DNA from: Alphaproteobacteria bacterium
GTDB taxonomy: Bacteria > Pseudomonadota > Alphaproteobacteria > UBA828
Assembly (NCBI GenBank): GCA_965220745.1
Contig: CBDCQT010000012.1
Location: 96,001-160,000, forward strand
Reading direction: 5' to 3'
Length of the DNA stretch: 64,000 bases
Shown: positions 37,857 to 61,654 of the stretch, piece after piece
Layout: each line of letters opens with the position of its first letter
Numbering within the stretch: the stretch's first letter is position 1
The notes under the pieces: generated by a model
What the model was told of the DNA's origin: nothing
The model's database searches: none
What the model saw: only the letters and a program-made list of their open reading frames with translations
Position numbers and translations under genes: made by a program

Positions 37857-38888
37857 TCAGTCGGGCTTGCGGGCAAGGAAACAATAGAGCGGTGTGAATA
37901 TGCCCGTTTTGCCGCCCGCGACATAGGCGTTCGCCGTGCGGTCCATCAGTTGGACAACGGCCGCTGAACCATTGGGAAAGAGCCGGAACACCTCCGCCAT
38001 CCGCAGACCCGCGAATATCGCCCTGCGACCCAAGGGCGTCCTGCGAAAAGCGTTGCCCAATGTCCCGCTCCGGCCTTCCATTGGCCGATGCCACGGTATG
38101 CCCTGGCCTTCCCTGTCGTCCCTGTTCGCTGCTTCGATGACGTCGAAGCCCGCAGCCTCAAGCGCGCGATTCACCTCCGAGAACGTGGCGATCTCTTTCA
38201 GGGCAATTCCCCGCTTGAGTTCATCCTTGATAGTGCGGTGACGGCTGTCGCTGGGGTCAAACTTTTCCGTCATGCACATCTCCTGACCCCACAGCAGGGC
38301 TCCCGGTTTGAGCACACGATATATCTCCGCAAACGCGCGCTCCTTGTCCGGCGCGTGGCAGGTCGACTCGATGGCATAACCCGCATCGAACGAGTTGGCC
38401 TCAATCGCACTCATATCCATGAAGTTGCATTTGATATACTCCGCCATATCGTCGAGCCCCGTCTCGATATTCCTCCGCTTGGCCTGTTCCAACTGCTGTT
38501 CGTTATTGTTGAGGCCGACAACCCTGGTGCCGCCTTCGCGGATGACCCGCCGCATGGGACCGCCCACGCCGCAGCCGACATCGACAACCACCATGCCCTC
38601 TCGTAATTCCAGCTTCTCGATCATCAGACGCTGATGGCGAACGACCGAGTCCTCCAGAGATTCCTCGCGCGTCAATGGCGCGAAATGGAGGGACTCGCCC
38701 CACCCGAATTGCATGATTCCGCTGCACAGCTCGTAGTAATCGTTCACCGTCTCGGTGAAGTCATAATCGCCGTCATCGGCATCGGCCCGCTCCATTCTGT
38801 CGAACCGATCGCCGAAACGTGCTACACGACCTCTGACGTCCCGGACTTGGTAAAGGATCCGCAGGTATCTGGACAAACTTGCTAACAT
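37857..38888 (-). CDS. Sterol 24-C-methyltransferase-like SAM-dependent methyltransferase (ERG6/SMT family)
   Basis: VN.YY...GWGESLHFAP, DVGCGVGGP, AIESTCHAP, EIYRVLKPG and C-terminal GG..GIFTP.Y.FLARKP. Confidence 0.85.
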   Translation of the reverse strand: MLASLSRYLRILYQVRDVRGRVARFGDRFDRMERADADDGDYDFTETVNDYYELCSGIMQFGWGESLHFAPLTREESLEDSVVRHQRLMIEKLELREGMVVVDVGCGVGGPMRRVIREGGTRVVGLNNNEQQLEQAKRRNIETGLDDMAEYIKCNFMDMSAIEANSFDAGYAIESTCHAPDKERAFAEIYRVLKPGALLWGQEMCMTEKFDPSDSRHRTIKDELKRGIALKEIATFSEVNRALEAAGFDVIEAANRDDREGQGIPWHRPMEGRSGTLGNAFRRTPLGRRAIFAGLRMAEVFRLFPNGSAAVVQLMDRTANAYVAGGKTGIFTPLYCFLARKPD

Positions 38889-39325
38889 GTGCTGCCTCGT
38901 TTATTGTCCATCTCGCAGTTTAGCTCTTTGGTAGCGGATGGCAACGACGCCGGAAGCATTTGCTAGTCTTACGGCGGTTTGTCTCCACATCACAAGGGAG
39001 GGATCCAGGCGAGGGGAGGCGCCCTTCGCCGCCGGCACCGGGGAAAAAGACCAAGCGAAGCCGGTTGACGGCTGGTGCCGGGACCATCGACATGGCCCTG
39101 CTGTCGGGCTCATGCGCCGTTCATTTCGCTGACGAACTCAACGGTCGTTTCATTACACTAAAGGCGCCGAGCACGGGCCACTAGCAATGCAGGGGCCGTC
39201 GAGGCGACCCCAAAGACGTGACGGGTGGCGAAAACCGGGCTAAATTTCGCGCGACATGGTGAGAGGGGGCGCTTGTCTGGGAACGATCGGCCCCCATCTC
39301 AGCTCTTATGGGAGGCCTTGGCCCG

Positions 39326-41347
39326 ATGCCCGACTCGGCCGCTACGGCCCAAGAACTGCGTCTGCCCGAGGAGCTTATCCTGATGCTCCTCAACGAGCAG
39401 AACGGCTATTTCCACCAGGTCCCCGGCTGGAATCTGAACTGCGCGGTGGTGGGCGCGGTGCTCGCGGAACTCTCCCTGCTCTCGCGCATTGACACTGATC
39501 TCGATTCGCTGATCCTCGCCGATCCAGCGGAGACGGGCGATCCGGTGCTCGATCCCGTCCTAAAGGAAATCGCCGGGGAGTCCGTTCAACGGGACGCCGT
39601 GTACTGGATCGAACGGCTTGCCGGCAAGGCGGAATCGATCATCGACCACACCCTCGAGCGCTTGGTCGAGCTGAAGATCCTGGAGCATCACGACGGCGAT
39701 TTCTGGACGCTGGCCGCCGCGACGTGGCGCGAGGAGTTGTCCGGTGGTTCCCAGGAAGGCACCGTTGGCCAGTTCGTAAAAACGCGTGTCCTCAAGGCGC
39801 TCTTCACCGACGAGATTCCCGACCCCAGGGACATCATCGTCATCTGCCTCGTCAATACGTGCGACGTCTTTCGCTTCATGTTCGAAATCGACGACGAGAC
39901 CCAAGAGCGGATCGATTTCATTTGCCGGATGGATCTGATCGGCCGTTCCATCGCCGCCGCGGTCGAGCACAACATCTCCAGCCCGTCGCTGCGGCCTTCC
40001 GCGCTGACTAAGAAAATACCCGTCGTCCCCCTGCACAAGCTCTTGCTGAACCCGCGTCTTCGGGGCGGCAACATCGCCGCCATTTTCGCGCACATCGCGG
40101 AAGAACACGGTCCGGTTTTCCAAATCCGTCCTCCGTTCCAGGAACCCACGACCTTCCTCGCCGGGCCCCAAGTCAACCGTTGGATACACCGGAACGGGCG
40201 CATGTATCTGCGGTCCAGGGACTATTTCACCGACATCGAGAAGGTTTATGGCGCGTCCGGGGTGATTGCCTCGCTCGACGGGGCCGACCATTTTCAACTG
40301 CGCAAGGCGATGCAGCCGGGCACTTCCCGCGGGAGGCTGGAGGATCGACTGCATGACCTCTACGGCCATGCCCGCGCGTTTATGGCGGACTGGAATGTGG
40401 GATCGTCGCTGCCGGCGACCAGCATGTGCCGACTGATGATCAACGCGCAGATATCCCCGCTGGTCATCAGCATTGATTCACAGGACTTCGTGGAGGACCT
40501 GATCAGATTCAAAGAGCGCGCGCTCACCACCCACGTGGCCAAAGTTCTGCCCAAGTTCATGCTGAACACCCCATCGATGAAACGTGCGTCAAGGGCCATC
40601 GACATCGGGGTACAGCGGATCCTGGGCCTCCACACGCCCGCCCAGCGGGTCGGTTGCCCCCGGGATCTCGCCGACGACCTGCTCAGCCTCCACGCCAGCG
40701 ACCCGCAGTTCCTGCCCGAATCGAACCTGGCCTTCGCTCTTTCGACGCCCATGCTGGCTAGCATGTATCTGGGAGACGCGTTCGGCTGCGCGCTCTACGC
40801 CATGGCGTCGCAGCCTACGCTCTACGAAAGGATCCGTGCCGAAGCCGACGCCCTCTTTGAGAACGGCGATCCGGATGCCAAGGACTTCGCCGACGAGTCC
40901 ATCGACGTTACGCGGCGCTTCATCTTGGAATGCCTGCGCATGTACCCCATCGTGCCCGCGTCCATCCGCAACGTCATGAATTCATGCGTTGTCGAGGGCC
41001 ACGAGCTGCCCGTGGGCGCGCGCATCGCCATCGCCTCGACGGCGCCGCATTACATGAGCGACGTCTTCCCGGACCCCTTCACATTCGACATCGACCGCTA
41101 TCTGCCGCCGCGCAACGAGCACCGCAGTCCCGGCTATGCGCCTTATGGGCTTGGCACCCACAAATGCCTCGGCTTCCGCTGGGTGGACCTGCAGCTGGCT
41201 GTCAACCTGCTGATGGTCGCACACTACTTCACGCTCAAGGTATCGCCCGCGAATTACAAGCTCCGGATCAGTCCGTTTCCGTCGCTGTCACCGAGCAAGA
41301 AGCTGAAGTTCCGCATTGCCGAGCAGGTGCGCGAGCTGCCCGCCTGA
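39326..41347 (+). CDS. GOLPH3/Vps74 (GPP34)-like domain fused to cytochrome P450
   Basis: N-term L.LPEEL.L.LL...GAVL.EL.L..RI...TGDP.LD..L; C-term ECLR (ExxR), FDIDRY, PYGLGTHKCLG heme motif. Confidence 0.8.
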   Translation: MPDSAATAQELRLPEELILMLLNEQNGYFHQVPGWNLNCAVVGAVLAELSLLSRIDTDLDSLILADPAETGDPVLDPVLKEIAGESVQRDAVYWIERLAGKAESIIDHTLERLVELKILEHHDGDFWTLAAATWREELSGGSQEGTVGQFVKTRVLKALFTDEIPDPRDIIVICLVNTCDVFRFMFEIDDETQERIDFICRMDLIGRSIAAAVEHNISSPSLRPSALTKKIPVVPLHKLLLNPRLRGGNIAAIFAHIAEEHGPVFQIRPPFQEPTTFLAGPQVNRWIHRNGRMYLRSRDYFTDIEKVYGASGVIASLDGADHFQLRKAMQPGTSRGRLEDRLHDLYGHARAFMADWNVGSSLPATSMCRLMINAQISPLVISIDSQDFVEDLIRFKERALTTHVAKVLPKFMLNTPSMKRASRAIDIGVQRILGLHTPAQRVGCPRDLADDLLSLHASDPQFLPESNLAFALSTPMLASMYLGDAFGCALYAMASQPTLYERIRAEADALFENGDPDAKDFADESIDVTRRFILECLRMYPIVPASIRNVMNSCVVEGHELPVGARIAIASTAPHYMSDVFPDPFTFDIDRYLPPRNEHRSPGYAPYGLGTHKCLGFRWVDLQLAVNLLMVAHYFTLKVSPANYKLRISPFPSLSPSKKLKFRIAEQVRELPA

Positions 41348-42165: not shown

Positions 42166-42429
42166 CACCGTTTCCTCCTGTCGGCGGCCATCGGCGGAGC
42201 GGGGAAAGCGGGACATTGATGGCGGTATCCGGGCAGCGACCGGACCATGTCGTCTCGTTCACCTTCGCCGGAACTTATTCGCACATGGTAGCACGATTCC
42301 TGCCCTGCAAATGAAACCTCCGCTTGAGCGTGTCCGTCTTTGACGGACGCGCGACAGGCCGTGACCGCGGCCCGCCGCTGATGCGGCGCGCCCGCGCAGG
42401 CGCCGGCCACAGGCCGGCTGCCGTGAGCG

Positions 42430-42750
42430 AAATAGTACGAGAGCGTTTCCGTGTAGAAACACCAAGAGACGATATGGTGGTTTAGAAGTTTGAGCCAATA
42501 TGCGATGGTCGTCCACTTCTCATGTTGTATATCAGAGGTTTGTCAGATATTCAACCATAGAATTTTGAGTACAATGGCCATGGCAGGATTTGCCTGTCTT
42601 GTGGTGATAGTGACACTTTGGTGTTGAAGTGTTCCTCATATGGGCGGTAATCTGCGGCTTATGGGGTGCATCTCGATGATAGATATGTAGTCCGTATGGT
42701 TTCTACGGTATAATATGGGACGATATTGGGAAATCTCCATAGGATAGCGA
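42430..42750. promoter_or_regulatory. AT-rich non-coding region (promoter and/or oriT candidate)
   Basis: Sharp GC drop, TATAAT at about 42709, directly upstream of three RHH-like genes. Confidence 0.45.
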
Positions 42751-42758
42751 GCGGGCCG

Positions 42759-43091
42759 ATGCCGGCGAGACAAAAGGGCGAAAAGCGGAAGCAGCGCTGG
42801 GTCGGTGCAACCGATGCCGAATGGGCCGAGATCAGCGAAGGCGCGCAAGCGGCGGGATTGTCCAATTCCGACTACGTCATCCGGTGCTGCCTTGAGGGCA
42901 AGGCGCGGGCCGAGCCGACCGATGCCGCTCTGCCCTCGCCGGTGCTGCAGCGAGCGGTGAAGGCGGTATTGATCCTCGAAGAACTGCAAAGGCTGCGGCT
43001 CGCGAACGACGGCGAGATAGGCGAAGCACTGTGGCGGAGGGCGGTGGGCGAGGTGGACGCCTGGATCAAGGGCGAGGACGATCTGGGATGA
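42759..43091 (+). CDS. RHH/MobC-like protein 1
   Basis: ATDAEW..I...A.AAGLS.SDYV pattern. Confidence 0.6.
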   Translation: MPARQKGEKRKQRWVGATDAEWAEISEGAQAAGLSNSDYVIRCCLEGKARAEPTDAALPSPVLQRAVKAVLILEELQRLRLANDGEIGEALWRRAVGEVDAWIKGEDDLG

Positions 43092-43104
43092 AGCGGAAGG
43101 TGCC

Positions 43105-43431
43105 GTGATCCTCGCGAAGAAGCGCTGCATCTACTGCTCCCCAGAGACGCGGGAGAAGATGCGGCGGCGGGCCAGGAAGGAGAGGATTCCGCTCTCGCGC
43201 CTGGTCATTCTGTGCTGCCGCCGGGTTGCGAGCGCGAGCGCTCCTCCGGAACCGCCCGGTCATCGCCTGGCGCTTGCCGAGGACGCGCAGCGCCGCCTTT
43301 ACGAGGACAGCCGCGTTCTCGCCCGGTCGAAGGGCATCGTTGTCGATGCGCAGGAAGGCGGGAAGGCGACCCTGGCGATCCATGAAGTGGTTCGTTTTCT
43401 GCTGCTTTGCGAAGAAGAGCAGGAGGCATGA
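43105..43431 (+). CDS. RHH-like protein 2
   Basis: IYCS.E.RE....RA......LSRL pattern; coupled to next gene. Confidence 0.5.
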   Translation: MILAKKRCIYCSPETREKMRRRARKERIPLSRLVILCCRRVASASAPPEPPGHRLALAEDAQRRLYEDSRVLARSKGIVVDAQEGGKATLAIHEVVRFLLLCEEEQEA

Positions 43432-43925
43432 GCAAGCCGCGCGTGCGCAGGGCGGGGACCGAACAAACGATTTCCGCGACCGACGAGGAATGGGCCGACG
43501 TCCAGTCGGGGGCGGACGAAGCCAGAATGTCGGTGTCGGCCTGGGTGGTCCATTGCGTGTTGACGGTGGACCCCCTGCCGCGGAAGCATCGCCGGCTGGT
43601 GCTCGACGAGAAACAGCAGAAATCTGTCTCACGGGCCGTGAGCGAGCATGCACGGAGCCTGCGCTCGGACGTCGACGCGCCTTCGCAGGTCACCGACGAC
43701 CTCGGCGCGCTGCTGAAGGCGCGGCTTGAGACGATGGACCGGCAGGACCGGGGCAGCGAAGCCGCGACGCTCCTTCGGCAGGTATTCGGCGAGGAGCGGG
43801 CGGCAATCATCGCCGCCGCCTTCATGCCGAATGTACGGATGACGCCGGAAGCGGCGCAAAAACCGCAGAAGCCCGCACCCCGAAAGAAAAGGGTCCGCGA
43901 CTCCGGTCAGGGCGAGTTGTTCTGA
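43428..43925 (+). CDS. RHH/MobC-like protein 3
   Basis: RBS AGGAGG, ISATDEEW..V...A....MSVS.WV, similar to protein 1. Confidence 0.6.
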   Translation: MSKPRVRRAGTEQTISATDEEWADVQSGADEARMSVSAWVVHCVLTVDPLPRKHRRLVLDEKQQKSVSRAVSEHARSLRSDVDAPSQVTDDLGALLKARLETMDRQDRGSEAATLLRQVFGEERAAIIAAAFMPNVRMTPEAAQKPQKPAPRKKRVRDSGQGELF

Positions 43926-44230
43926 TTGCAGGCAGGCAGATCGGGCGAACAGGTGCGGCAGTCAAGAGAGAGCGAGGTCGACCCGCGCGGGCCTCTGCCC
44001 CCGACGGTGTCGGGCTGGAAAGACGGGGCACCTCCGATGACGTCCCTTGATCATCGAGGCAAGGGCCGAGGGGCTCCGGCCGGTCGACGAACGGCTGGAG
44101 CGCTCGCCGCGCTGCATCGAGCTCGCCTGGGCCAGGCGCTGAAACGGCGTCCTGCCCTCGACCACGGTGGGCGGCGGCCTCTCGCCGCTCCTGTCGCTCC
44201 AGTGAAGCAGGGGGCATCGGCGGGACAATC

Positions 44231-45598
44231 ATGGCTCTCGAAGTCGTAAAGGCGTTCACCCTGGAGCACGTCCGGTGGCTCGCGCCCCTCGAGGAATGGG
44301 CCCTGCGCGAGGTGAAGGGCGCAGCGGTAGAGGGCAGGGAGCCGAAGCCGGAGGCGCGAGGGATCTACGACCCCTTGACCGAGGACATCCGCAACGGGAA
44401 CTGCTGGATCCTCTGCAATTGCCTTCCCCATGAGCCGGAGCGGCCGGTCATCGTGCCCGCTCGGAGAACGCGCGGCATCAGTCTCGGCAACCTGCCCGAC
44501 GCTCCGGTGCCGCATGACGGGAGTTGCGTCTTCCGCCTGCGCGGACACTCGATAGACACCTCCGGTTATCTCTTCAATCCGCTGACGTACGACCGGCAGG
44601 GCGCGGCTTCGTTGGAACGCGACCGGAGGCGCGAACCCCGGGGCCGGGGCGGTCGGTCGGTCCCGGTCGTGGCCCACGTGCTCAAGTGCTTCATCCGGGA
44701 GGCGCGGCTGCACACGTTGGCAGGCGCGGAGCGGTTCCCGTCTCCGGCGGACTGGCTCGCGGAACTCGCGCGCGCCGCGGCCGCGTTCCCCGTTGCGCCG
44801 AATGTTCCGGCGTCGGAGGTGCTGTTGACCGACCCCGCGAGATGGCGCTCGGGCGAATTCCAGAAAAGGCTGGACGAGCGCGCACAGAAGTGGCCGAAGG
44901 GTTCCCCGCCCTGCGGCTTCCTGTGCTGGGACGCGGACGACGTGGAGGACCACGAGATCAACGGCAAGACCACGGGCGCCGGCCACGTGAGGGTGACCTC
45001 TCGCGTGGTCTCTCCGCGCGTCTACGACAACAGGGTGGTGGGGCCCTATCTCTTCCTGGGGGCGCTGGAACAGTCCGAAGACCGATCCGGGTGGGAGTGC
45101 TGCATGGCCTATGCACATCCCATCGCCGCACTGGAATTGCCGATCCCGGTCGAGTCGGAATACGAGCGCCAGGCGCTCCTGTCGCTTCCACAACTGGTCC
45201 GGGATCTCCAGAGCGACACGAAGCTTGAGGAGGCGCTCGGCGGGGTCGTCGGGGTCGAGCTCCAGAAGCCTCTCTTCGAGATAGGGGTGCGCGAAGGCCC
45301 CTGTCGACCGGACGTCCTTCTCACCGTGACCCGCCCTGGCGGTCCGGTCCCCCGTGTCCCCGACGATGCCTTCGACGGCAGCGACAAGGTGCACTACGTC
45401 ATCGAGGTCATGGGGTTCGACGACGAGAAATACAAGAAACGGAAGGAAAAGACCCACCGCCGGATGGAGCGGCTCGGCCGGGTGATCCCCCTGGAGGGGT
45501 GGACGTTCGAGGCCGCTCACTACGGCCTGGAGCGCCAGCTCGAGAGGATCGCCTTGCGGATCGCGAAGGATCTCATCCGGCGATGGGGAGCAAGCTGA
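44231..45598 (+). CDS. Hypothetical protein with Cys/His motif and PD-(D/E)xK-like nuclease C-terminus
   Basis: WILCNC, H...C.F, PVES.YER, RPD.LL, IEVMGF...Y..RK. Confidence 0.6.
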   Translation: MALEVVKAFTLEHVRWLAPLEEWALREVKGAAVEGREPKPEARGIYDPLTEDIRNGNCWILCNCLPHEPERPVIVPARRTRGISLGNLPDAPVPHDGSCVFRLRGHSIDTSGYLFNPLTYDRQGAASLERDRRREPRGRGGRSVPVVAHVLKCFIREARLHTLAGAERFPSPADWLAELARAAAAFPVAPNVPASEVLLTDPARWRSGEFQKRLDERAQKWPKGSPPCGFLCWDADDVEDHEINGKTTGAGHVRVTSRVVSPRVYDNRVVGPYLFLGALEQSEDRSGWECCMAYAHPIAALELPIPVESEYERQALLSLPQLVRDLQSDTKLEEALGGVVGVELQKPLFEIGVREGPCRPDVLLTVTRPGGPVPRVPDDAFDGSDKVHYVIEVMGFDDEKYKKRKEKTHRRMERLGRVIPLEGWTFEAAHYGLERQLERIALRIAKDLIRRWGAS

Positions 45599-45766
45599 CG
45601 GTTCCGGTTCCCGCGGCGGGTTCCCGGCGCCCCGAAAACGCCGAACCGGCGGCGCGTCGGAGGCGGCCGGCAGTCGCAGGAACCTCACTGGGCTCCGCGA
45701 CGGCCTGGAGCGCACATGGTACGGCACACTAACATGCCGGATCGGCTTCCCGGGAATGCGACGACA

Positions 45767-48700
45767 CTAAGGCATCCAGGGGCGCCTGCGCATGACGTAG
45801 TGCCGTCCATGCTGCTGGTTCAGTTCGACCCGTATCTTGTCCAGCTCCATCTTTCTGGCGCGCGCCTTGGACCAGCGTTCGTCCTCGTCGTCCCGGAATG
45901 CGCGCCATCGCGCGAATGGGAAGAGTTCGTCGAGCGAAAGGCTGAATTCCCGGCAAGGCTCGTCGTCCGAACGCGAGATCTCGCGGAGCTTGCAGCTGTC
46001 CTCCGCTTCGGTCTTCCCCGCCGTTCTCTCGACCACCTCCAGCTCGATCTGCACGACCGTCGGGCGGCCCAGGCGCGCGCTCGCCGGCGCAGCCGTTTCC
46101 GATCGGCCGACCTCGCTGCACCACAACCGGTCGCCCCTGGTGAGATCCCGTGAGCAGTCGAGTGGATAGCTGGCCGGGGGTTCCGGCCACTGGCGCGCCC
46201 GCTCCACCTCGCGAAGCCTCTCGTCGCTCCACTCCGCGCGATGGACGCGGCCCGCGAGCTTCGTTGCGGACATTCGCGTCACCGGCTCTTCGGCTGTGCG
46301 CCCCGTCGCCGGCGCAGCCCATTCCAGCTCCACCTCGTCGTGGCGGGTACACCCGCCGGTCCGTCCGGGCTGGAGCACCACCGCTTCGCGTTGCGGCTCG
46401 TCGTCCGATCGCTGCAACCTGATCCTGTCGCCCGCGAGCAGCGGTTCCGCGCCCCACCAACGGCGGTCGAACGCGTGCCCGACGGCGGGATCGCGAAGCC
46501 GTGCCAGCTCCGCGCCCACCATCTCCGCGATCCGGTCCTCCTCCAGCTCGGGAACGGTTTTCCGCTCGCTTGCGCGCCGAAGTCTCTGCTCGATGCGCTC
46601 GAGCATATCCGGGCGACCTCGCCAGCGCTCCCGGGTGCCCTCGTCCAGTACCCACTGGGCGTCGTCCTCGAACCGGAGGCTTCGTTCTTGCCACGCCGGC
46701 CATTCGGCAAGCAGCGACAACGGCAGTGTCTCCCGCGTCGCGCGTTCCTCGAGCCGGCGGTATTGCTCGTCTACCTGATTCGCTTCCCGGAACAGGCTTT
46801 GGAACGTCATCCATTCGATTGAGAGGGCGGCATGCTCGTCGATCTCGGCCTGCAGCCGGCGCCGGGCCGCCTCTTCCAGGTCCGGTTCCTTCGCCAGGCG
46901 CTCCGCTCGGGCGATGGACTTGTCGTACCCCTCGTCACCCACGGGCGAGATGCCCTGCGCCAGCGCACCGGGTTTCGTCTCCTCGATCCGGTTCATCACC
47001 GAGACGAAGCGGTCGAGCAGGTGGTGACTCTCCAGCCGCTTCAGAGCGGCAGTCAGCGCTTCCCTGCCATCCGGTATCCGGTCGAGATGGGGAGCATAGG
47101 TGTCTTCGTCCTTGTGGATTGCTCGTCCCGTGGTCAGCAGCTTCTCCGGAAAGTCGGTGAGGGACCGGTAGCCCGGCAGGCCGATGACGAGGAAATCAGA
47201 ATCCTGCCGGGCACGCCGCTTCGCTTCTTCCTGCAGGTCCTTCCAGTACTGCCCATGTTGCCCGGCTCCCTGGAGGAAACCGTCGACGGTGGCGCGCTCC
47301 GTGCTGCATCGACTGTCGTATTCCAGCACCCGCTCCACCATGTTACGTGCCTGGTCCGGCAAGCCCTCCCTCCGGCCGAGCGCGCGGGCCTCCTCGACGA
47401 GCTCTTCCCAGCCCGGCAGATAGAAGGCGATGACGTTCCCGGCCTTCGCCCGGTCCGCCATCGCCAGACGCTTCTCGAACACCCCCGCCCAGGCCAGATC
47501 GTGCTTGCCGAGTTCATCGAGCTGATCGACGGCGGCCGCGATCTCCCCCGCTTCATCCTTCAACCGGTCGAGATGGGGTTGCCATGTATCATGGGGCCGC
47601 CATGTATCATGGGGCCGCCATGTATCATGGGGCCGCCATGTATCATGGGGCCGCCATGTATCCGGATCTTCACGCTTGGAATCCGGCACTTCACGCATGG
47701 CGCGCCAGCCTTCGCCCAGCTCTCCGCAACGCGCCAGCCAGTCGGCATAGCCTGCCAGTTCGGTGGGCGGGGTGAATGTAGATCGGTACTCCGTGCTGGC
47801 GCGGTCCTCCAACTTCGTGTGCTCGTCCAGAAGCCCGACCGCAGAGGCATGAAGTGCGACGATTGCCGCCTTCCGTTCTTCGCAGGCCTCTGCATGGTCA
47901 AGGACCTCCCTGGCTGCTGCCAGCGCCCATGCAGGAAGGGGGGATCGCCTGGTAAGTGTCGTGGCCCGCCCGACAAGATCGTCATGGCCCTCGGCGTAAA
48001 ACGGAATCGCGCCTTCAGCCGCGGCCCGCGCCGCCACCTCGCGGCGTATCGTGTCGAATGCGAGCACCGCGTCGTCGACCGCCAGCAGGTCGGCGAGCTG
48101 CCCGAGGCGCTCTGAGATCGTTCCGCCCACTTCGCCCGCGCGCTCGCCCAGGGCCGCGAGCAGGACCTTGCCGTTCGCCGAAAGACGTCCCGACATCTCC
48201 CGCCACTCCGGGTAGTCTTCCAGTCCGGCAACCGGGCACGTCGCGGACTCGGCGGCCTCGTCCAGGCCGCGCCTCGTTGCGTCATGCGCATCGAGCAGTC
48301 CGAGGAACTCCACTGCCGCCCTGTCCCCCTCACGGCAGGCGCGGTCGTAGGCGAGCAGGCCGTCCACGTCCTCCCGTGTCAGGGCCGGCAGGTCCGGCTT
48401 CCCGGCGAGCTCCCGCGCGCGTCCGATCAGCGCCCCGTAGCCCTCCACCAGGAACAACACCGTAGCCTCGCGCCGCGCCCGCCGTTCAAGGGCCTCCCAT
48501 TCGTCGCGCAGCGTCCAGACAGGCTCCTTCTCCGCCAGCAGCCGGACGATCTCCTCAGGCTCAATCTCGATCGGAGCGTCGACCGCCTCGATCGCCGTCG
48601 GCCGCTCCCCGGTGTTGTCGGCCAGAACCTTCACCAGCTGCTCGGCATTGTCGGTGAGCACCACCGCCCGCTCCCGCGCCCGGCTGATCTCGACGTAGAA

Positions 48701-51298
48701 GGTCGACTGGTCGGTGAGCGCGCCGTGGCTCGAATCCAGCACCGCGATCACCCCCTCCGCCGTGCTCCCCTGCGCGCCGTGCACGGTCGAGCTCCAGGCG
48801 TGGTCGATATGCCGCAGCTGCGGATCGTCCAACCGCAGCGACAGCCCCCGCCCGTCCGCCAGTCTGAACCGCACCCGGCCCTTGGCGATCCCCTCCACCT
48901 CGGCCCGCTCGCCGTTGATGAGCGACCGCTTCCTGTCGTTCCGGGTCCAGCGGATCCGGTCGCCCGCGCGGACCTCCATGGGACGGGTCTCGTAGACGTC
49001 GAGCTGGTAACGGATCGAGCCCGCCGGGCGGATCCAGCGCTGCTTGCCGTCGGGATGCAGCAGCATCACCCGGTCGTAGTCGATCCCGGTCACCGTCAGG
49101 ATCTCGTCCTTCTTCAGCCGGTAGTTGACCAGGTCCTGGTGGAACACCACCAGGTCCCCTTCGCGGTAGTTGCGCACGTCCCCCTTCTCGGTCCGGGTCA
49201 AGCCCAGGCTGACCAGGCGCTCGATCCCGAGCGCCTTCCCCCGGAGCACCCCCTCATTCGCCAGTGCCTCCCGGACGGTCCGGTTGATTTCCTCCCTCAA
49301 CGCATGGGTCGGCGCGACCAGCAGGGTGTTGTCGCGGGTGGCGGGGTCGAGAGCCAGCCAGGCCTGCGCCGCCTTCTCGCCGAGCTCTTCGTGCGCCACC
49401 TCGTGCACGCTGCTGCCGAGCAGCTCCACCGCCTCGCCGGGATCGCCCGCCAGAACCGCCTGCACCGCCGCCCGCAGCTCCGGGTTCCGCTGGCGCAGGA
49501 TGTCGTCCATCGCCGCCGTCGTCATCCCCGCCCGCTGCAGCAGACGGAACGGCTGCCCGGCTTCCACCGCGCGGAGCTGGCTGCTGTCGCCCACCAGCAC
49601 CACGCGGGAAGCGTCGAGCTCGTCCGCCGCCCGCAACAGCGAGCGCATCTGGTCGGTCGACACCATCGAGGCCTCGTCCAGCACCAGCACCGCGCCGCCG
49701 AAGGTCTCCCTCAACGCCTCCAGCGCCTGTCGGTTGCCGCCCGCCGCCCGGCGGCGCGCCAGGAACCACTGAAGCGTTCGGGCATGAATGCCGGTCTCGC
49801 GACCCAGCACCGCAGCCGCCGCAGCCGAGGGCGCGAGTCCGAACACCGGCTTCTCCCCGGCAAGCGCCCGCACCTGGCGCAGCATCGTCGTCTTGCCGGT
49901 CCCGGCCCGGCCCTGCACGCCGACGACCCGGTCGTGCGCCAGCAGGATCGTGCGAACCGCCTCCCCCTGTCCCTCGGTGAGCCCGGCGCCGTCGAGACGG
50001 GCGGCCACGTCCCTCTCCCGGGCCAGCGCCGCGCCGGCACCGATCCCGGCCTTCATCATGGCGATCGTGGACCGCTCTGCCTTCAGCGCCCGGTCGGTGA
50101 CGAAGGCCCGGTCGGCGCGCCGCAGCTGGGCCTCGACCAGGTGGCCGTCGCGGACCAGCCAGGCGATCGTGTCCCGGATCTCCCCGAGCGAATGCCGGCC
50201 CGGCGAATGGCCGAGAGCAAGCGCCTCGAGCTCGTGTTCGGAAAAGACCGATTGCCGTTCCTCAAGCTGGCGCATGCAGCGGCGCACGATCGCCAGCGCG
50301 GACGGGCTCTCCGGAAGCATGATCGCTTGCTCGGAGCGTGTCTCTGCGAGCGCCGTGTCGAGGCTCAATTCCTGTGCGCGGGCCCGCCATAGCTCCTGCA
50401 GCTGAGCCCGCACCGGCTCCGCCTTCCGCTTGCGCGTCGCCAGCGTCGCCGCCTGCATCGCCGCCGCGCCGCGGTCCCAGCCCTTCTCGTCCACATAGGC
50501 CAGGATCTCGTGCCTGCGCGTCGAGAAGGCTCTCCGCAGCTCCCCGCCGTAGCCCGCAAGCTCGAAGCTCGGCAGCCGACCCACCATCGCCGGCACGATC
50601 GAATAGCCCTTCGCTATCAGCTGCCGCGCCAGCCGGTCGCGGTAATAGGCTCCGATCAATCTCGCATTGCGGTGCAGCAGCGTCGGCTCCACGCTTTTCC
50701 ACCGCCCCTCCTCGTCCCGGGTCATGTTGGCGATCACGGCGTGAGTGTGGAGCTGCGGATCGAGGTTGCGGCTTGCGATGTGGCGGAACAGCGCCGCCAC
50801 CATCGAGGGCGCCTTCACCCTTGGCCGCCTGCCGGTGGCGGGGTCCCAGCCACGGGTCTCCAGCAGCATCCCCTCGATCCAGTCGAGCGTCTCGCGCACC
50901 GCCGCACTGTGCGCGCGAATGACCGCCCGGTCGCCGTGCGGGTGTTCCTCCGTCGGCAGAAGCGCCGCCAGCGACACCGACTTCGGCGCCGAGAAGGTGA
51001 TGTCGAAGCCCGGGCGATGCTCGTGCTGCCCGTCGCGCAAGCGCCCGAGCCGAGTCCCTGTTCCGATCACGTGGCCCTGAAGAAGCTTCTCGAAGGCGCC
51101 CGCCGCGACCGGCTTGCCGGGATGCAGTCCCAGGGCAACCGCGCCCGCACCGTGCCAGGTGCTCGCGTTCCGGTGCTCGGCCCGCTTGGCCCGAAGGTCC
51201 GCCGCGTCCTCGCCTTTCCTCAAGTAGTAGCCGCCGTCCTGGCGGAAATACTCCGACGTGGCAGAGGACGAGGTCAGGTTGCGGACCGTCGCGACCAT
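45767..51298 (-). CDS. trwC: MOBF (TrwC/TraI-type) relaxase-helicase with long repetitive C-terminal extension
   Basis: Y..(G)GYY, FDITFSAPKSVS, H..SR.LDPQLHTH, FSTRR..I, G.AGTGKT, DEASM, GD..QL, TVH.AQG.T. Confidence 0.9.
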   Translation of the reverse strand: MVATVRNLTSSSATSEYFRQDGGYYLRKGEDAADLRAKRAEHRNASTWHGAGAVALGLHPGKPVAAGAFEKLLQGHVIGTGTRLGRLRDGQHEHRPGFDITFSAPKSVSLAALLPTEEHPHGDRAVIRAHSAAVRETLDWIEGMLLETRGWDPATGRRPRVKAPSMVAALFRHIASRNLDPQLHTHAVIANMTRDEEGRWKSVEPTLLHRNARLIGAYYRDRLARQLIAKGYSIVPAMVGRLPSFELAGYGGELRRAFSTRRHEILAYVDEKGWDRGAAAMQAATLATRKRKAEPVRAQLQELWRARAQELSLDTALAETRSEQAIMLPESPSALAIVRRCMRQLEERQSVFSEHELEALALGHSPGRHSLGEIRDTIAWLVRDGHLVEAQLRRADRAFVTDRALKAERSTIAMMKAGIGAGAALARERDVAARLDGAGLTEGQGEAVRTILLAHDRVVGVQGRAGTGKTTMLRQVRALAGEKPVFGLAPSAAAAAVLGRETGIHARTLQWFLARRRAAGGNRQALEALRETFGGAVLVLDEASMVSTDQMRSLLRAADELDASRVVLVGDSSQLRAVEAGQPFRLLQRAGMTTAAMDDILRQRNPELRAAVQAVLAGDPGEAVELLGSSVHEVAHEELGEKAAQAWLALDPATRDNTLLVAPTHALREEINRTVREALANEGVLRGKALGIERLVSLGLTRTEKGDVRNYREGDLVVFHQDLVNYRLKKDEILTVTGIDYDRVMLLHPDGKQRWIRPAGSIRYQLDVYETRPMEVRAGDRIRWTRNDRKRSLINGERAEVEGIAKGRVRFRLADGRGLSLRLDDPQLRHIDHAWSSTVHGAQGSTAEGVIAVLDSSHGALTDQSTFYVEISRARERAVVLTDNAEQLVKVLADNTGERPTAIEAVDAPIEIEPEEIVRLLAEKEPVWTLRDEWEALERRARREATVLFLVEGYGALIGRARELAGKPDLPALTREDVDGLLAYDRACREGDRAAVEFLGLLDAHDATRRGLDEAAESATCPVAGLEDYPEWREMSGRLSANGKVLLAALGERAGEVGGTISERLGQLADLLAVDDAVLAFDTIRREVAARAAAEGAIPFYAEGHDDLVGRATTLTRRSPLPAWALAAAREVLDHAEACEERKAAIVALHASAVGLLDEHTKLEDRASTEYRSTFTPPTELAGYADWLARCGELGEGWRAMREVPDSKREDPDTWRPHDTWRPHDTWRPHDTWRPHDTWQPHLDRLKDEAGEIAAAVDQLDELGKHDLAWAGVFEKRLAMADRAKAGNVIAFYLPGWEELVEEARALGRREGLPDQARNMVERVLEYDSRCSTERATVDGFLQGAGQHGQYWKDLQEEAKRRARQDSDFLVIGLPGYRSLTDFPEKLLTTGRAIHKDEDTYAPHLDRIPDGREALTAALKRLESHHLLDRFVSVMNRIEETKPGALAQGISPVGDEGYDKSIARAERLAKEPDLEEAARRRLQAEIDEHAALSIEWMTFQSLFREANQVDEQYRRLEERATRETLPLSLLAEWPAWQERSLRFEDDAQWVLDEGTRERWRGRPDMLERIEQRLRRASERKTVPELEEDRIAEMVGAELARLRDPAVGHAFDRRWWGAEPLLAGDRIRLQRSDDEPQREAVVLQPGRTGGCTRHDEVELEWAAPATGRTAEEPVTRMSATKLAGRVHRAEWSDERLREVERARQWPEPPASYPLDCSRDLTRGDRLWCSEVGRSETAAPASARLGRPTVVQIELEVVERTAGKTEAEDSCKLREISRSDDEPCREFSLSLDELFPFARWRAFRDDEDERWSKARARKMELDKIRVELNQQHGRHYVMRRRPWMP
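47573..47662 (-). repeat. 18-bp in-frame tandem repeat x5 (DTWRPH) in relaxase
   Basis: GCCATGTATCATGGGGCC units on + strand. Confidence 0.95.
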
Positions 51299-51420
51299 GA
51301 CGCAGGATCATAGCGGTCCGGCGGTGATGTCGCGGTCAAAATACGACCGGAGTTGGGGCTTGCGCTCCACTATAGGCGCACTTGTGCCGGCCCATCGTTG
51401 TAGGGGGCTTGGCGCTTTGT

Positions 51421-51657
51421 CTAGCCCTCGCTCCCCTTGGCGCCGTTGAGTTGTCTGGCCGCGAGAGCCTGTCGCACGAGTTCCATCGCGTAAGGAATCT
51501 GGCGGGCGTTATCCACCTCCACCTGAACGTCGCCGTTGCCCCAGAGCCCGAGATTGGTCACGTCGGCGGCAAGCCCGCGCGGGCCGGAGATGTCGTCAAA
51601 GCGCATGTTGAGGGAGAGCAGAAGCCGGCGCTTCTGCGGCACCACGTCCGTGAAGTT
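51421..51657 (-). pseudogene. C-terminal DUF5655-like fragment of a defence/R-M-associated gene, cut by IS3
   Basis: F.DVVPQ...L...LNM....I..P.GL..DVT.LG.WGNGDV.V...LVRQ. Confidence 0.65.
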
Positions 51658-51714
51658 TGATCCTCCCCCATCGGATTGGTCCACCCTTAGGTTATGGAAA
51701 GAGGAGGACCGACG

Positions 51715-51993
51715 ATGGCAAGGAAGCGTTACAAGCCCGAGGAGATCGTGAGCCTGCTGCGGCGGGCTGAGGTTCTGAACGGCCAGGGCATGTCGATGGC
51801 GGACGCGATCCGCGAGCTTGGGATCAGCGAGGTTACCTTCTACCGCTGGCGCAAGGAGTATGCCGGGATGAGCGGCGATCAGCTCCGCCGTTTGAAGGAG
51901 CTCGAGAAGGAGAACGAGCGGCTGCGCCGTGCGGTCTCCGATCTGACGCTGGACAAGCAGATTCTCAAAGAGGCCGCAGGGGGAAACTTCTAA
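51715..51993 (+). CDS. IS3 transposase OrfA
   Basis: Same protein as copy 1. Confidence 0.9.
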   Translation: MARKRYKPEEIVSLLRRAEVLNGQGMSMADAIRELGISEVTFYRWRKEYAGMSGDQLRRLKELEKENERLRRAVSDLTLDKQILKEAAGGNF

Positions 51994-52067
51994 GCCCCTC
52001 GCGCCGGCGCCAGTGCATCGATCATGTCTGTGACCGGCTCGGGGTCTCGGAACGCCGCGCTTGCCGG

Positions 52068-52886
52068 GTGCTGGGGCAGCACCGCTCGACCCAGCGCCGC
52101 ATCCCGCGCGGCCGCGACGACGAGGACCGCCTGGTCGCGTACATGATCGAGCTGGCCCGCCAGTACGGCCGTTACGGCTATCGCCGCATCGCGGCCCTGC
52201 TTCGCGATGCCGGCTGGCAGGTCAACGACAAGCGGATCGAGCGCTTGTGGCGGCGCGAGGGGCTGAAGGTGCCCGGCAAGCAACCGAAGCGGGGCCGGCT
52301 TTGGCTCAATGACGGCTCCTGCATCCGGCTGCGCGCCGAGAGGGCGGATCACGTCTGGTCCTACGACTTCGTCCATCACCGGACGTATGACGGCAGGGCC
52401 TTCCGCATGCTCAACGTCCTGGACGAGTTCACCCGCGAGAGCCTGGTCATCCGGGTGCGCAGGAGGCTTTCCTCGATCGACGTCATCGATGTGCTGACCG
52501 ACCTGTTCATCCTGCGCGGCATTCCGACCTGGATCCGTTCCGACAACGGTCCGGAGTTCGTCGCCGAGGCCGTCAGGCGGTGGATCGCTGCGGTCAGCGC
52601 CCGCACCGCCTTCATCGAGCCGGGCTCACCCTGGGAGAACGGCTACATCGAGAGCTTCAATGCGCGGCTGCGCGACGAGCTCCTGAACGGGGAGATCTTC
52701 TACACCCTGAAGGAAGCCCAGGTTCTCATCGAATCGTGGCGGTGCCATTACAACGCGATCCGCCCACACGGCAGCCTGGGATACCGGCCGCCCGCCCCGG
52801 AGACGATCATCATGCCAAGCTGGCCGCCCGGCTCCGCTACGCTCCGCCGGCCACCCAGCTTGGCCGAGGAACCCGCGATGCACTAA
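52068..52886 (+). CDS. IS3 transposase OrfB
   Basis: Same protein as copy 1. Confidence 0.9.
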   Translation: MLGQHRSTQRRIPRGRDDEDRLVAYMIELARQYGRYGYRRIAALLRDAGWQVNDKRIERLWRREGLKVPGKQPKRGRLWLNDGSCIRLRAERADHVWSYDFVHHRTYDGRAFRMLNVLDEFTRESLVIRVRRRLSSIDVIDVLTDLFILRGIPTWIRSDNGPEFVAEAVRRWIAAVSARTAFIEPGSPWENGYIESFNARLRDELLNGEIFYTLKEAQVLIESWRCHYNAIRPHGSLGYRPPAPETIIMPSWPPGSATLRRPPSLAEEPAMH

Positions 52887-52920
52887 CATTCGACCTGGAC
52901 CAGTCGACGGGGGCAGGTCA

Positions 52921-53699
52921 CATGATCGAGCTGGCCCGCCAGTACGGCCGTTACGGCTATCGCCGCATCGCGGCCCTGCTTCGCGATGCCGGCTGGCAGG
53001 TCAACGACAAGCGGATCGAGCGCTTGTGGCGGCGCGAGGGGCTGAAGGTGCCCGGCAAGCAACCGAAGCGGGGCCGGCTTTGGCTCAATGACGGCTCCTG
53101 CATCCGGCTGCGCGCCGAGAGGGCGGATCACGTCTGGTCCTACGACTTCGTCCATCACCGGACGTATGACGGCAGGGCCTTCCGCATGCTCAACGTCCTG
53201 GACGAGTTCACCCGCGAGAGCCTGGTCATCCGGGTGCGCAGGAGGCTTTCCTCGATCGACGTCATCGATGTGCTGACCGACCTGTTCATCCTGCGCGGCA
53301 TTCCGACCTGGATCCGTTCCGACAACGGTCCGGAGTTCGTCGCCGAGGCCGTCAGGCGGTGGATCGCTGCGGTCAGCGCCCGCACCGCCTTCATCGAGCC
53401 GGGCTCACCCTGGGAGAACGGCTACATCGAGAGCTTCAATGCGCGGCTGCGCGACGAGCTCCTGAACGGGGAGATCTTCTACACCCTGAAGGAAGCCCAG
53501 GTTCTCATCGAATCGTGGCGGTGCCATTACAACGCGATCCGCCCACACGGCAGCCTGGGATACCGGCCGCCGGCCCCGGAGACGATCATCATGCCAAGCT
53601 GGCCGCCCGGCTCCGCTACGCTCCGCCAGTCACCCAGCTTGGCCGGCAAACCCGCAATGCACTAACATTCGACTTGGACCAGTCGACGGGGGCAGGTCA
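52921..53699 (+). mobile_element. Partial IS3 copy (right ~780 bp) fused directly to copy 3
   Basis: Starts inside orfB (MIELARQ) and ends with IRR; a few substitutions near the 3' end. Confidence 0.9.
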
Positions 53700-54761
53700 G
53701 CGCTCGGCGAAGACCGATTGTCGCTCCTCCAGATGCCGCATGGCGCGTCTGACAATCTCCAGCGCGGAGGGAACCGTGGGAAGGACCATCGGTTGCCTGG
53801 AGCGCGTCACGGAAGGAACGGTGGCCAGACCCATCTCCCGCACGCGCTCGGTCCAACTCGTCTCCAGCATCGCCCGCACCGGCTCCGCCTTGCGCTTGCG
53901 CATCGCGTACGACGCGATCTGCGTCGAGCGCTGGCTGTAGGCCAGCTCCTGCTTCTCAAGGTAGTCCAGGATATCGCTCCTGCGCGTCGAGAATGCGTCG
54001 CGGAGCTCCTTGTCGTAGCCCGCGATCTCGAAGCTTTGTATCCGACCCGCCATCGCGGGCAGAATCGAATAGCCCTTCTCTATCAGCCTCCGTGAAAGCT
54101 CGTTCCGGTAATACGCCCCGATCAGCCTCGCGTTGCGGTGCAGCGAGATCGGCTCGACGCTCTTCCACCGGCCCTGCGCATCCCGGGTCATGTTGGCGAT
54201 CACCGCATGGGTGTACAGCTGCGGGTCCAGGTTGCGGCTCGCGATATGGCGGAAGGTCGCCGCCACCATCGAAGGCGACTTGATCCGGGGCCGCCTGCGG
54301 GTGGCAGGGTCCCACCCCCGGGTCTCCAGCATCGTGTCCTCGATCCAGTCGAGGGTCGTGCGCACCGCCTCGTCATGCGCGCGCATCACACCCCGGTGGC
54401 CGCACGGGTGCTTCTCCGTCGGCAACAACGCCGCGAGCGACACCGACTTCGGGGCCGAAAAGGTGATGTCGAAACCCGGCCGATGCTCGTGCTGTCCGTC
54501 ACGGAGGCGCCCGAGCCGCACGTCCGTTCCGATCACATGGCCCTTGAGCAGCTTGTCGAACTTCCCCGCCCAGACATGCATACCGAGTTCCAGCCCAAGG
54601 GCACGCGCGCCGCGCCCGTGCCAGGCGCTGCCGTTCCGGTGCTCGGCCTGCTTCGCCTGCTGTAGCGCCCCGTCATCGTTCTTCAGATAATGGCCGCCAT
54701 CCTGCTGAAAATACTTCGAAGTGGCGGAGGAGGAGGTCAGATTGCGGACTGTCGAGACCAT
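53700..54761 (-). pseudogene. Second MOBF relaxase, truncated by IS3
   Basis: Collinear with first ~350 aa of 45767-51298; GGHY for GGYY and QLYTH for QLHTH. Confidence 0.88.
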
Positions 54762-55062
54762 GACGCGGGATCATAGTGATCTCCTGGCGAAATTGCGGCG
54801 CAAATGACACCCTGGTCCCGCGAGCACCATAGACGCGCGCGGCGAGTTCTGGTGCATCGCGGCGCGCCGCCCCGGCCGATCGTCTCGAGCTGACGCCTCG
54901 CCGCCTCAAGGTTGTGTGGCTGAGCCCGGTGGAGGCTGACGAGAAACGTCTCCTCGCGGGTCATGCGTCACCTTCGCCACCGCGCACCACAGGCTGGCTC
55001 GGACATTTGACGACAACTCCGCCTGCCGTATCGTGATCCGGCAAGTGGAGGAGTTATCGGCG

Positions 55063-55374
55063 ATGGCGACCTTGACGCGGGCGGATCTGGCGAAGGCCGT
55101 CAGCGAGGAGACGGGATGGACGCAGCGCGACGCGAGGACGTTCGTGGACGCGGCATTCGAGGAGATCATGGCGCGCCTTGAGGCCGGAGAGACGGTGAAG
55201 CTCAGCGGCTTCGGCAGCTTTGGGTTGCGCGACAAGGCGGCGCGGACGGGGCGCAATCCGAAGACGCGGGCGGCTGCGCCGATAGTGCCGCGCCGGGTGG
55301 TGGTCTTCCGGGCTTCCCATGTATTGAAGAAGCGGATCGGCAAAGGGATGTCCGGTGGCGAGAACGGCGGTTAG
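55063..55374 (+). CDS. ihfA: Integration host factor alpha-like protein
   Basis: TLTRADL, VKLSGFG.F.LRDK..R.GRNPKT...I.PRRVV.FRAS..LK. Confidence 0.88.
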   Translation: MATLTRADLAKAVSEETGWTQRDARTFVDAAFEEIMARLEAGETVKLSGFGSFGLRDKAARTGRNPKTRAAAPIVPRRVVVFRASHVLKKRIGKGMSGGENGG

Positions 55375-55439
55375 GAATTTGAAAGCTTCGCTGCTACAAG
55401 TGCGCGGCACCTTCACTACGGACAGGCAAATATAGCATC

Positions 55440-55730
55440 ATGGACCAGACAACTTCGAGCGGTTTCGACGAGAGTACTCTCTCCAAGGGAGAGATTCGCA
55501 AGCTGAACGCGTTGCGAAAGTCAGTGGGCACGGAGATCGGCGACAAGGCGTTCGCCGAATGGTTGTCGTCACGTTCGAACGGGTCGAACGAGGAGGCCTC
55601 CAACGCAGATAAAGATCGTCGATATCCTGTGGCCGCTCGTCCAGGCAGGAACACTGAAGATCCCGCGAGGCGGCTACCTGCTGAGACGCGGACGCGGCAG
55701 GATTATCGCGGAGCGTGCGCAGACATAGAT
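55440..55730 (+). pseudogene. Small hypothetical gene, probably frameshifted near 55610
   Basis: KGEIRKLNALRKSVG..IG..AF..W continues plausibly in another frame as IVDILWPLVQAGTLKIPRGGYLLRRGRGR. Confidence 0.45.
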
Positions 55731-55965
55731 GGTTTGGCCCCGGCCCTGGCAGAGGGGCGGCAGACGCGGAGACATGCGAGTCAGCCTTGACGACGGCGCC
55801 TGAGCGGTCGGCCGACGCGCGGAATGGCAGAGGAGCCGGTTCCGCCGGGTCGCCGCCGGCAAGCGCGCTAACGGTTGCGGCGGCACCGGCGCGGGCTTCC
55901 TCGGATGACTGCCGGTTGTCGCCGTCTGTTGACCCGCCGGCGCGCCAGTCGCTAATTCCTCATGC

Positions 55966-56095
55966 CATGAGCCACACCGGGGAACAGATCGAGCTTCTGT
56001 CGGACCTGCTGGACCGGGCAATGCCGGAGCGGGACGCGATGTCGATCGTCGAGCTGGACGCCATGAACGACATCAAGGCGGTCCCTGCGAGCTAG
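55966..56095 (+). pseudogene. Possible UPF0149/YecA N-terminal fragment at right island edge
   Basis: L..LL......DAM...ELD pattern, then abrupt end. Confidence 0.35.
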
Positions 56096-61648: not shown

Positions 61649-61654
61649 CGGTGC

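Follow-up and report, generated by a model that had tools for sequence, protein, structure and literature searches.

A GPP34-cytochrome P450 fusion with a clade-specific I-helix in the sterol-gene neighbourhoods of sponge-associated bacteria

We consider a gene that joins a GOLPH3/Vps74-like (GPP34) domain to a cytochrome P450 in a 64,000-nucleotide stretch of an alphaproteobacterial genome (the window, C12:96001-160000 of the source genome). The open reading frame (ORF) listing of the window gives the gene as 39308-41347 on the forward strand, a frame of 679 residues whose numbering is used throughout. Translation probably starts at the second ATG, at 39326, because a Shine-Dalgarno-like GGAGG (39312..39316, forward strand, by direct reading) lies 9 nt ahead of it and because homologues in the closest database clusters are mostly 673-675 residues long. 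The likely gene is then 39326..41347, encoding 673 residues, with the same start as in an earlier reading of the bare sequence (the first-pass annotation). That annotation had taken the first ~215 residues for a GPP34 pattern joined to a P450 and had named a Pfam architecture search as a check; Pfam indeed finds both domains in the one ORF, all parts being on the forward strand. The GPP34 domain (PF05719) occupies residues 19-220 (39362..39967; E 7.8e-28, 98.3 bits against a gathering cut-off of 29.1), with support from AF2 and Foldseek, and the P450 domain (PF00067) occupies residues 253-666 (40064..41305; E 2.3e-31, 109.5 bits). The linker between them (residues 221-252, 39968..40063) is less conserved than both domains in 24 of 32 aligned relatives. 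The full-length fusion model has a pLDDT of 78.2 and a pTM of 0.70, a search for a signal peptide and a transmembrane segment in the fusion protein found none, and no NCBIfam family matches the protein at its cut-off.

The fusion is widespread. Both Pfam domains are present in all 120 of the closest database clusters listed (69-99% identity, 654-704 residues), with source names such as Nitrospira, Rhodospirillaceae, Defluviicoccus and alphaproteobacterial metagenome-assembled genomes (MAGs). Searching with the P450 domain alone returns 13,772 proteins at E<=0.001, of which 288 reach E<=1e-30; among the listed representatives of at least 600 residues (n=47), 42 combine GPP34 with P450, one is a P450 alone and four combine P450 with cNMP-binding domains. 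A genome scan provides 35 related loci in MAGs of several phyla, Nitrospirota among them, with labels that cover Alpha- and Gammaproteobacteria, Candidatus Poriferihabitaceae, Poriferisodalis, Nitrospirales, Dehalococcoidia, Acidimicrobiales, Arenicellales, Paracoccaceae and Binatia. The window stretch itself is present in sponge and coral metagenome runs from 8 studies, and metagenomic DNA contigs from several studies span the GPP34-P450 gene. A one-off assembly artefact, which the first-pass annotation had named among the outcomes that would undo its reading, is ruled out by the 120 of 120 listed clusters, the 42 of 47 long representatives and the spanning contigs.

The architecture is not new, being already known in print. 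The first-pass annotation knew of no characterised protein built in this way, which is still correct in the biochemical sense, but the statement about the architecture is out of date because the accessible part of PMC11706023 (Microbiome 2025;13:4) describes, under the name "GPP34_L", 656 proteins with GPP34 plus cytochrome P450 among 663 long forms. There the group is said to occur in sponge symbionts and nowhere else, and the same part of the paper gives no biochemical function for it. The window protein fits this group, having both domains in one polypeptide and coming from a sponge-associated bacterium; the two-domain architecture, the length of ~675 residues and the occurrence in sponge-symbiont MAGs of many phyla are all shared. 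What differs is the interpretation, an effector proposal in that paper and the company of sterol genes here. Neither "sterol" nor "methyltransferase" occurs in the text of PMC11706023 (its supplement, with Fig. S11 on flanking genes, lies outside our scope), and the I-helix variant clade, to be described now, is not mentioned in that text either.

In the P450 domain the marks of the family are all in place: the HMM match, the ExxR motif (E541-C-L-R544, 40928..40939, E and R invariant) and a Cys-ligand loop of the FxxGxxxCxG type (P-Y-G-L-G-T-H-K-C-L-G, 41141..41173), whose haem ligand Cys620 is kept in all 26 sequences compared. The I-helix (residues 484-490, 40757..40777) reads A-S-M-Y-L-G-D in place of (A/G)-G-x-(D/E)-T-(T/S) and lacks the acid-alcohol pair. 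All three strings quoted in the first-pass annotation (ASMYLGD, ECLR, PYGLGTHKCLG) are found, and its view of the I-helix is borne out, with no canonical Thr in any of three alignments. Misalignment is ruled out by the agreement of phmmer, the hmmsearch profile and MAFFT. In both HMMER alignments A-S-x-Y-L-G lies opposite the A-G-H-H-T-S of CYP51, which sets Y487 at the His (the acid position elsewhere) and L488 at the conserved Thr. Across 43 aligned family members of 50-99% identity, Y487, G489 and D490 never vary, and conservation is 90% or higher at A484, S485 and L488; because the motif is kept in these members, the non-canonical I-helix is a conserved feature and no sequencing error.

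The alignment of 116 sequences and the tree computed from it (FastTree, midpoint root) suggest where the change took place. Nearly all fused and unfused relatives carry (A/G)-G-x-(D/E)-T, and the motif is lost only in an 18-sequence clade around the window protein. Its basal members P0129 and P0131 read A-G-H-Y-T, which, to judge from the sequences, links the CYP51-type motif to A-S-x-Y-L-G-D as an intermediate. On the same kind of evidence, the odd I-helix marks one clade within a larger, otherwise canonical GPP34-P450 superfamily. Beside this clade, four relatives of the P450 domain (P0244, P0245, P0247 and P0248; 711-739 residues) have two C-terminal cyclic-nucleotide-binding domains, and in P0244, P0245 and P0248 the I-helix is also non-canonical, reading N-(S/G)-x-x-Y. 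The source genome also encodes an unfused P450 with a canonical I-helix at C11:344166-345320.

The loss of the acid-alcohol pair could mean that the protein is a non-catalytic sensor or carrier of haem or sterol, and the lack of a conserved ferredoxin-like ORF near the gene would agree with this. Such a role is very improbable, however, as the Cys ligand and the ExxR motif are retained and 107 of the 679 residues of the GPP34-P450 are invariant across phyla, a pattern that is typical of an active enzyme, and as active P450s without the Thr exist, for example CYP710/CYP61, in which D-A is kept (PMC11311414, accessible part). The loss of the pair in a clade that seems to derive from a CYP51-like motif suggests, rather, a non-standard oxygen chemistry; because the I-helix is without the pair, the reaction is probably no standard hydroxylation.

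The descent from a CYP51-like ancestor is indicated by the sequence searches. The best PDB sequence match of the domain is given by the M. capsulatus CYP51 entries (PDB accession codes: 6mcw, 7snm, 7jj1; E 3.7e-17, single sequence, phmmer), and with a 26-sequence profile the M. capsulatus CYP51 reaches 97.7 bits, while the next family stays at 85.8 bits. The top Foldseek match is a lanosterol-bound CYP51 (TMt 0.81), with BM3 and others nearly equal, and the VIA-align Z scores are 34.2 for CYP46A1, 33.3 for CYP51 and 33.3 for BM3. Because the Foldseek TM and VIA-align scores are near-tied, the structure says P450 only. The M. capsulatus protein resembles ours further in its sterol-pathway context and in being a fusion protein. 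It differs in its ~20% identity (Foldseek), in its partner, which is a ferredoxin there and a GOLPH3-fold domain here, and in its I-helix, which has His-Thr there and Tyr-Leu here. With His replaced by Tyr, Thr by Leu and a separate true CYP51 in the source genome, the window protein does not conform to CYP51 as defined by A-G-x-H-T-S and a pathway role as 14-demethylase.

A second comparison, raised by the first-pass annotation, is with the C-22 desaturases CYP710 of plants and CYP61 of fungi. These are sterol side-chain P450s with a Thr-less I-helix, and the fungal CYP61 shares the A-S; that part of the comparison stands. According to the accessible part of PMC11311414, the CYP710/CYP61 signature is F(L/M)FA(A/S)QDA(S/T)(S/T)S, with the acid D276 and then A277 conserved. 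Set against this published signature, which is the only basis of the comparison, A-S alone matches; the acid and the Ala kept in the desaturases are Tyr and Leu at the aligned positions here, and that part of the likeness falls away.

The N-terminal half has the GOLPH3/Vps74 fold, as the first-pass annotation had supposed. An AF2 model of residues 12-236, made from 65 aligned sequences, has a mean pLDDT of 87.5, and Foldseek places GOLPH3/Vps74 structures at all of the top 8 PDB ranks (E 1.2e-9 to 1.1e-5, TM 0.57-0.72), the next match being at E 0.17. The further claim of membrane targeting through phosphatidylinositol 4-phosphate (PI4P) is not supported. The PI4P pocket of GOLPH3 consists of W81, R90, R171 and R174 (Wood et al., PMC2806290, accessible part), and in the HMMER alignments (profile E 8e-6) these residues align to W41, V48, E109 and I112; one of the four is kept, the Trp alone, and the 10-residue loop before alpha6 is deleted. 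Compared with eukaryotic GOLPH3/Vps74 (PDB accession codes: 3kn1, 2zih, 9qpq), the window protein has the fold and the pocket Trp, but is without the three basic PI4P contacts and the loop; it is bacterial, predicted to be cytoplasmic, and fused to an enzyme.

These features bear on the proposal, made in the accessible part of PMC11706023, that the GPP34 proteins, GPP34-P450 included, are secreted effectors that bind host PI4P and block phagosome maturation. The reported exclusivity to sponge symbionts agrees with it, as do the presence of the window stretch in sponge and coral metagenomes, the true GOLPH3 fold and the retained pocket Trp. The replacement of R90, R171 and R174 by V48, E109 and I112, the deleted loop, and the absence of an N-terminal signal or transmembrane segment all argue against it, and the conserved neighbours of the gene are sterol and lipid-export genes. 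A haem P450 also requires haem loading and reductants in the cytoplasm, which is difficult to reconcile with secretion. Because the pocket residues are missing, a signal sequence is absent and the genomic context points elsewhere, a secreted effector is disfavoured and we consider it improbable; the text of PMC11706023, for its part, mentions neither PI4P residues nor signal peptides. The GPP34 domain probably keeps the P450, which would be soluble without it, at the membrane or close to the lipid substrate by some means other than the eukaryotic PI4P pocket. This role would be a generic one, because GPP34 is fused to many P450 clades. GPP34 also occurs in other settings: the source genome has four short GPP34-only paralogues (C12:816639, C13:226607, C13:794426 and C3:157907), and P0184 (872 residues) has two GPP34 stretches N-terminal to its P450 domain.

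The genes on both sides of the fusion provide the functional context. Upstream and divergent lies a homologue of sterol C-24 methyltransferase (SMT; 37857..38888, reverse strand; Methyltransf_11 and Sterol_MT_C by Pfam), which belongs to what we call the window-type SMT clade and is separated from the fusion gene by the intergenic region 38889..39325. Downstream and convergent is a gene of the LolA_like family (PF17131; 41350..42216, reverse strand; E 2e-59) with a signal-like hydrophobic N-terminal segment; in relatives it is followed by a protein of ~431 residues and then by an MMPL/HAE3 transporter, and this ~431-residue protein always lies between the LolA-like gene and the MMPL. A promoter and terminator scan gives nothing above shuffled expectation.

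In the 35 related loci, ORFs were called and clustered, the representatives were annotated (Pfam, NCBIfam, PDB), and neighbours were counted within ~8 kb of the GPP34-P450. The MMPL/HAE3 transporter is present in 19 of the 35 loci, as is a KshA-like Rieske oxygenase (19 of 35), whose best PDB match is 3-ketosteroid 9alpha-hydroxylase (E 3e-25). These are followed by an amine-oxidase-like FAD protein (FAD oxidoreductase, 15 of 35), the LolA-like protein (14), SMT (12, or 13 counting a remnant), the ~431-residue protein (9; L001:11093-12385 and homologues), a fused squalene epoxidase-oxidosqualene cyclase (SMO-OSC, 6) and a ~277-residue protein (5; L008:12544-13374 and homologues). The LolA-like, ~431-residue and ~277-residue proteins have no NCBIfam match at cut-off, and the latter two have no Pfam match either. 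The FAD oxidoreductase was set aside as a functional lead, its best PDB match being the uninformative amine oxidase LkcE. At least one of SMT, SMO-OSC, KshA-like Rieske, FAD oxidoreductase and MMPL/LolA-like is found in 32 of the 35 loci; the other three are L021, with an SMT remnant only, and L033 and L034, where the GPP34-P450 is in pieces. As a working definition, we speak of a sterol-tailoring/export module where at least one such gene lies within ~8 kb, and the window qualifies with its divergent SMT and its convergent LolA-like gene. In all three Binatia loci (L030-L032) the GPP34-P450 directly follows the SMO-OSC on the same strand and is itself followed by an MMPL; in L030, whose surroundings were annotated, the module genes are flanked by housekeeping genes.

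The same neighbourhoods can be read as a system for the uptake and degradation of host steroids, in which the P450 would oxidise the side chain, the Rieske protein would act as KshA and the MMPL/LolA-like proteins would import. The 3-ketosteroid 9alpha-hydroxylase match of the Rieske neighbour is in keeping with this, as are the 14 of 35 genomes without an OSC-type match and the cholesterol 24-hydroxylase CYP46A1 as top VIA-align match, though tied with others. However, the anabolic SMT and SMO-OSC occur in the same clusters, and the conserved neighbour clusters show no beta-oxidation or ring-cleavage genes. Import is also at odds with the established export function of MMPL/HAE3 and HpnN-like pumps. 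We regard degradation as unlikely.

We now consider the sterol genes elsewhere in the genomes. The source genome has a complete bacterial sterol cluster at C13:12001-32000 (L038), with an epimerase/3beta-HSD (SdmB-like), a Rieske/VanA_C protein (SdmA-like), ERG4/ERG24, a CYP51-type P450 (I-helix AGQHTS), a fused squalene epoxidase-OSC of 1150 residues, a second SMT and a ~277-residue protein; a DDE transposase lies beside the cluster. Among the 35 related genomes, the SMO-OSC is full-length in 18 (66-98% identity) and partial or a remnant in 3, and 14 are without an OSC-type match; in G020 short remnants are all that is left. An intact CYP51 adjoins the SMO-OSC in 14 of the 18 full-SMO-OSC genomes; it is split in G019 and, in G033, down to a fragment. 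SMT is more widely held, with matches in 30 of the 35 genomes, including 12 of the 14 without an OSC-type match, and in 11 of these 12 it belongs to the window-type clade (58-80% identity).

With these counts two further possibilities can be weighed. The first is that the GPP34-P450 is a divergent sterol 14alpha-demethylase that substitutes for CYP51. Its nearest sequence affinity is CYP51, and the three Binatia genomes G029-G031 have an adjoining SMO-OSC and no CYP51 match at E<=1e-40. Yet G029 and G030 argue against substitution, because no ERG4/ERG24 match is found in them, which leaves no C-14 reductase to follow a demethylation. In addition, an intact CYP51 stands beside the SMO-OSC in the 14 genomes just mentioned and in the source genome, the His-Thr pair of CYP51 is Tyr-Leu in the fusion, and the gene persists in cyclase-less genomes, all of which make a CYP51 substitute hardly probable. 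The second is that the substrate is a hopanoid or another isoprenoid rather than a sterol, methylated by the SMT-like enzyme. Many host genomes are without a cyclase, squalene-hopene cyclase is present in the source genome and in several other host genomes, and the window-type SMT clade shares only 36-47% identity with the SMTs that adjoin SMO-OSC. On the other side, the SMT has a Sterol_MT_C domain, the SMO-OSC directly adjoins the fusion gene in 6 loci, and SMTs from sponge symbionts accept desmosterol and 24-methylenecholesterol as methylation substrates in vitro (PMC10070321, accessible part). A non-sterol lipid is accordingly a doubtful choice.

The distribution within the order of the source organism (49 genomes) points in the same direction as the synteny. 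The GPP34-P450 orthologue and SMT are both confined to the source genus, and neither occurs in any of the order's 28 other genomes. Of the 21 genomes of the genus, 10 have the orthologue (at least 53% identity), and all 10 also give an SMT match, one of them partial; among the 11 genomes without the orthologue, SMT is present in 4, two of which are only 62% and 67% complete. We take this pattern as supportive and not as a statistic. Together with the recurring synteny, it lends support to the partnership between P450 and SMT that the first-pass annotation had put forward. Decayed copies (L033, L034, G019, G020 and G033) suggest that the module is being lost in some lineages.

Sterol clusters of sponge symbionts have been described by Brown et al. 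2023 (PMC10070321) and Kelly et al. 2022 (PMC9531527). So far as their accessible parts go, the organisms are the same and the clusters comprise SMT, fused SMO/OSC, CYP51, ERG24 and SdmA/B; the difference is that the GPP34-P450 module is also present in genomes where no cyclase is found. The accessible text of PMC10070321 contains neither "P450" nor "Golgi" and its supplements give ERG11 only, PMC9531527 does not mention GPP34 or GPP34-P450, and a 2025 SMT preprint (supplement outside our scope) contains neither "P450" nor "GPP34". Wider literature searches gave nothing further that links GPP34-P450 to sterols. Three points thus lie beyond the literature searched, with the supplement of PMC11706023 and the bioRxiv supplements outside its scope: the link to sterols, the clade-specific I-helix and the absent PI4P pocket.

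Combining the information above, the explanation that we favour, with a probability of roughly 0.6, is that the GPP34-P450 is a CYP51-like-descended enzyme of a horizontally spread sterol-tailoring/export module and probably oxidises a sterol near its side chain. The protein would be a cytoplasmic haem-thiolate P450 of the GPP34_L group, carrying its GOLPH3-fold domain at the N-terminus. The module would consist of one or more SMTs, the KshA-like Rieske oxygenase, the FAD oxidoreductase, sometimes the SMO-OSC, and an MMPL plus LolA-like exporter, and would have spread horizontally. For the P450, a sterol is the most likely substrate of oxidation; the probable site is the side chain alkylated by the SMT or a position close to it. 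That sterol could be made with the help of the bacterium's own cyclase, or it could be drawn from the host in symbionts without a cyclase. The persistence of the gene with SMT where no cyclase is found fits action on a feature that protosterols have in common with host sterols, the simplest choice being the side chain. Candidate chemistries are desaturation, C-C chemistry and substrate-assisted O2 activation. More tentatively, the Tyr clade of GPP34-P450 may represent a new kind of P450 for sterol side chains, such as a desaturase that makes or moves the double bond required by the adjacent SMT, or a C-22 desaturase. With the window-type SMT it would then enable sponge symbionts, cyclase-less ones among them, to remodel host sterols, which would be returned via the MMPL/LolA-like exporter.

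Several observations weigh against this explanation. The near-tied VIA-align scores do not discriminate between P450 families, and since many canonical P450 clades carry GPP34 as well, fusion to it is not in itself a mark of sterol function. Synteny is variable, with the GPP34-P450 sometimes lacking an SMT nearby (L001, L014, L015), 5 of the 35 genomes are without an SMT match and 14 without an OSC-type match, and a search for a conserved ferredoxin-like small ORF (45-140 residues, at least 3 Cys) near the gene found none common to more than 4 of the 35 loci. The genus-level co-occurrence overstates the support because kin are not independent, and the absences are soft because most genomes are MAGs. 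As to expression, contigs of the RNA library X20 overlie the SMT, P450 and LolA-like genes in part and none covers 38168-39336, but the uncovered parts prove nothing, and as a single RNA library that may contain DNA X20 offers a weak hint that the locus is expressed.

The surroundings of the locus vary between strains. Compared with the near-identical MAG locus L001, the window contains, at 42327..64000, the left part of a 46.8-kb insertion that continues to C12:185096, has a 7-bp overlap at its junction, and parts the LolA-like gene from the ~431-residue protein and MMPL at C12:185179-188750. Metagenome contigs part ways exactly at 42326, and the depth reaches 600-900 at 42343-42500. The insertion, which resembles an integrative mobilisable or conjugative element, encodes a NikA-like protein (42726-43091), a TrwC relaxase/helicase of 1843 residues (45767-51298, reverse strand), an rve integrase (52580-53665) and a second TrwC fragment (53697-54761). 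On the other side, synteny with L001, whose P450 is 99% identical, ends at ~39235. The SMT seems to lie on a strain-variable segment, because it is absent upstream of the GPP34-P450 in L001 and present in L002. Between the SMT and a gene for a WD40 beta-propeller protein (351 residues, 35718-36773, forward strand) is a TniB-like AAA_22/DUF3991 fragment (37036-37701); WD40 proteins are eukaryotic-like repeat proteins, a sort reported to be enriched in sponge symbionts. A second set of LolA-like, ~431-residue and MMPL genes is found in the source genome at C5:43-54 kb.

Sponge sterols with extra side-chain carbons (24-isopropyl, 26-methyl) underpin the earliest animal fossil claim. That SMTs of symbionts are able to produce side chains of this kind was shown by Brown et al. 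2023 (PMC10070321, accessible part). Because the P450 clade is gene-linked to SMTs across phyla, even in cyclase-less symbionts, it can be put forward as a testable candidate for the oxidative step that is still missing, and for the remodelling of host sterols by bacteria. For GPP34_L, a published "symbiosis factor", this provides an alternative function that is more easily tested. For P450 enzymology, the clade offers a conserved natural I-helix variant, with Tyr-Leu for the His-Thr of CYP51 and with A-G-H-Y-T members for comparison. If the side-chain P450 reading is true, bacteria would contribute directly to the unusual alkylated sponge sterols that are used as the oldest animal biomarkers.

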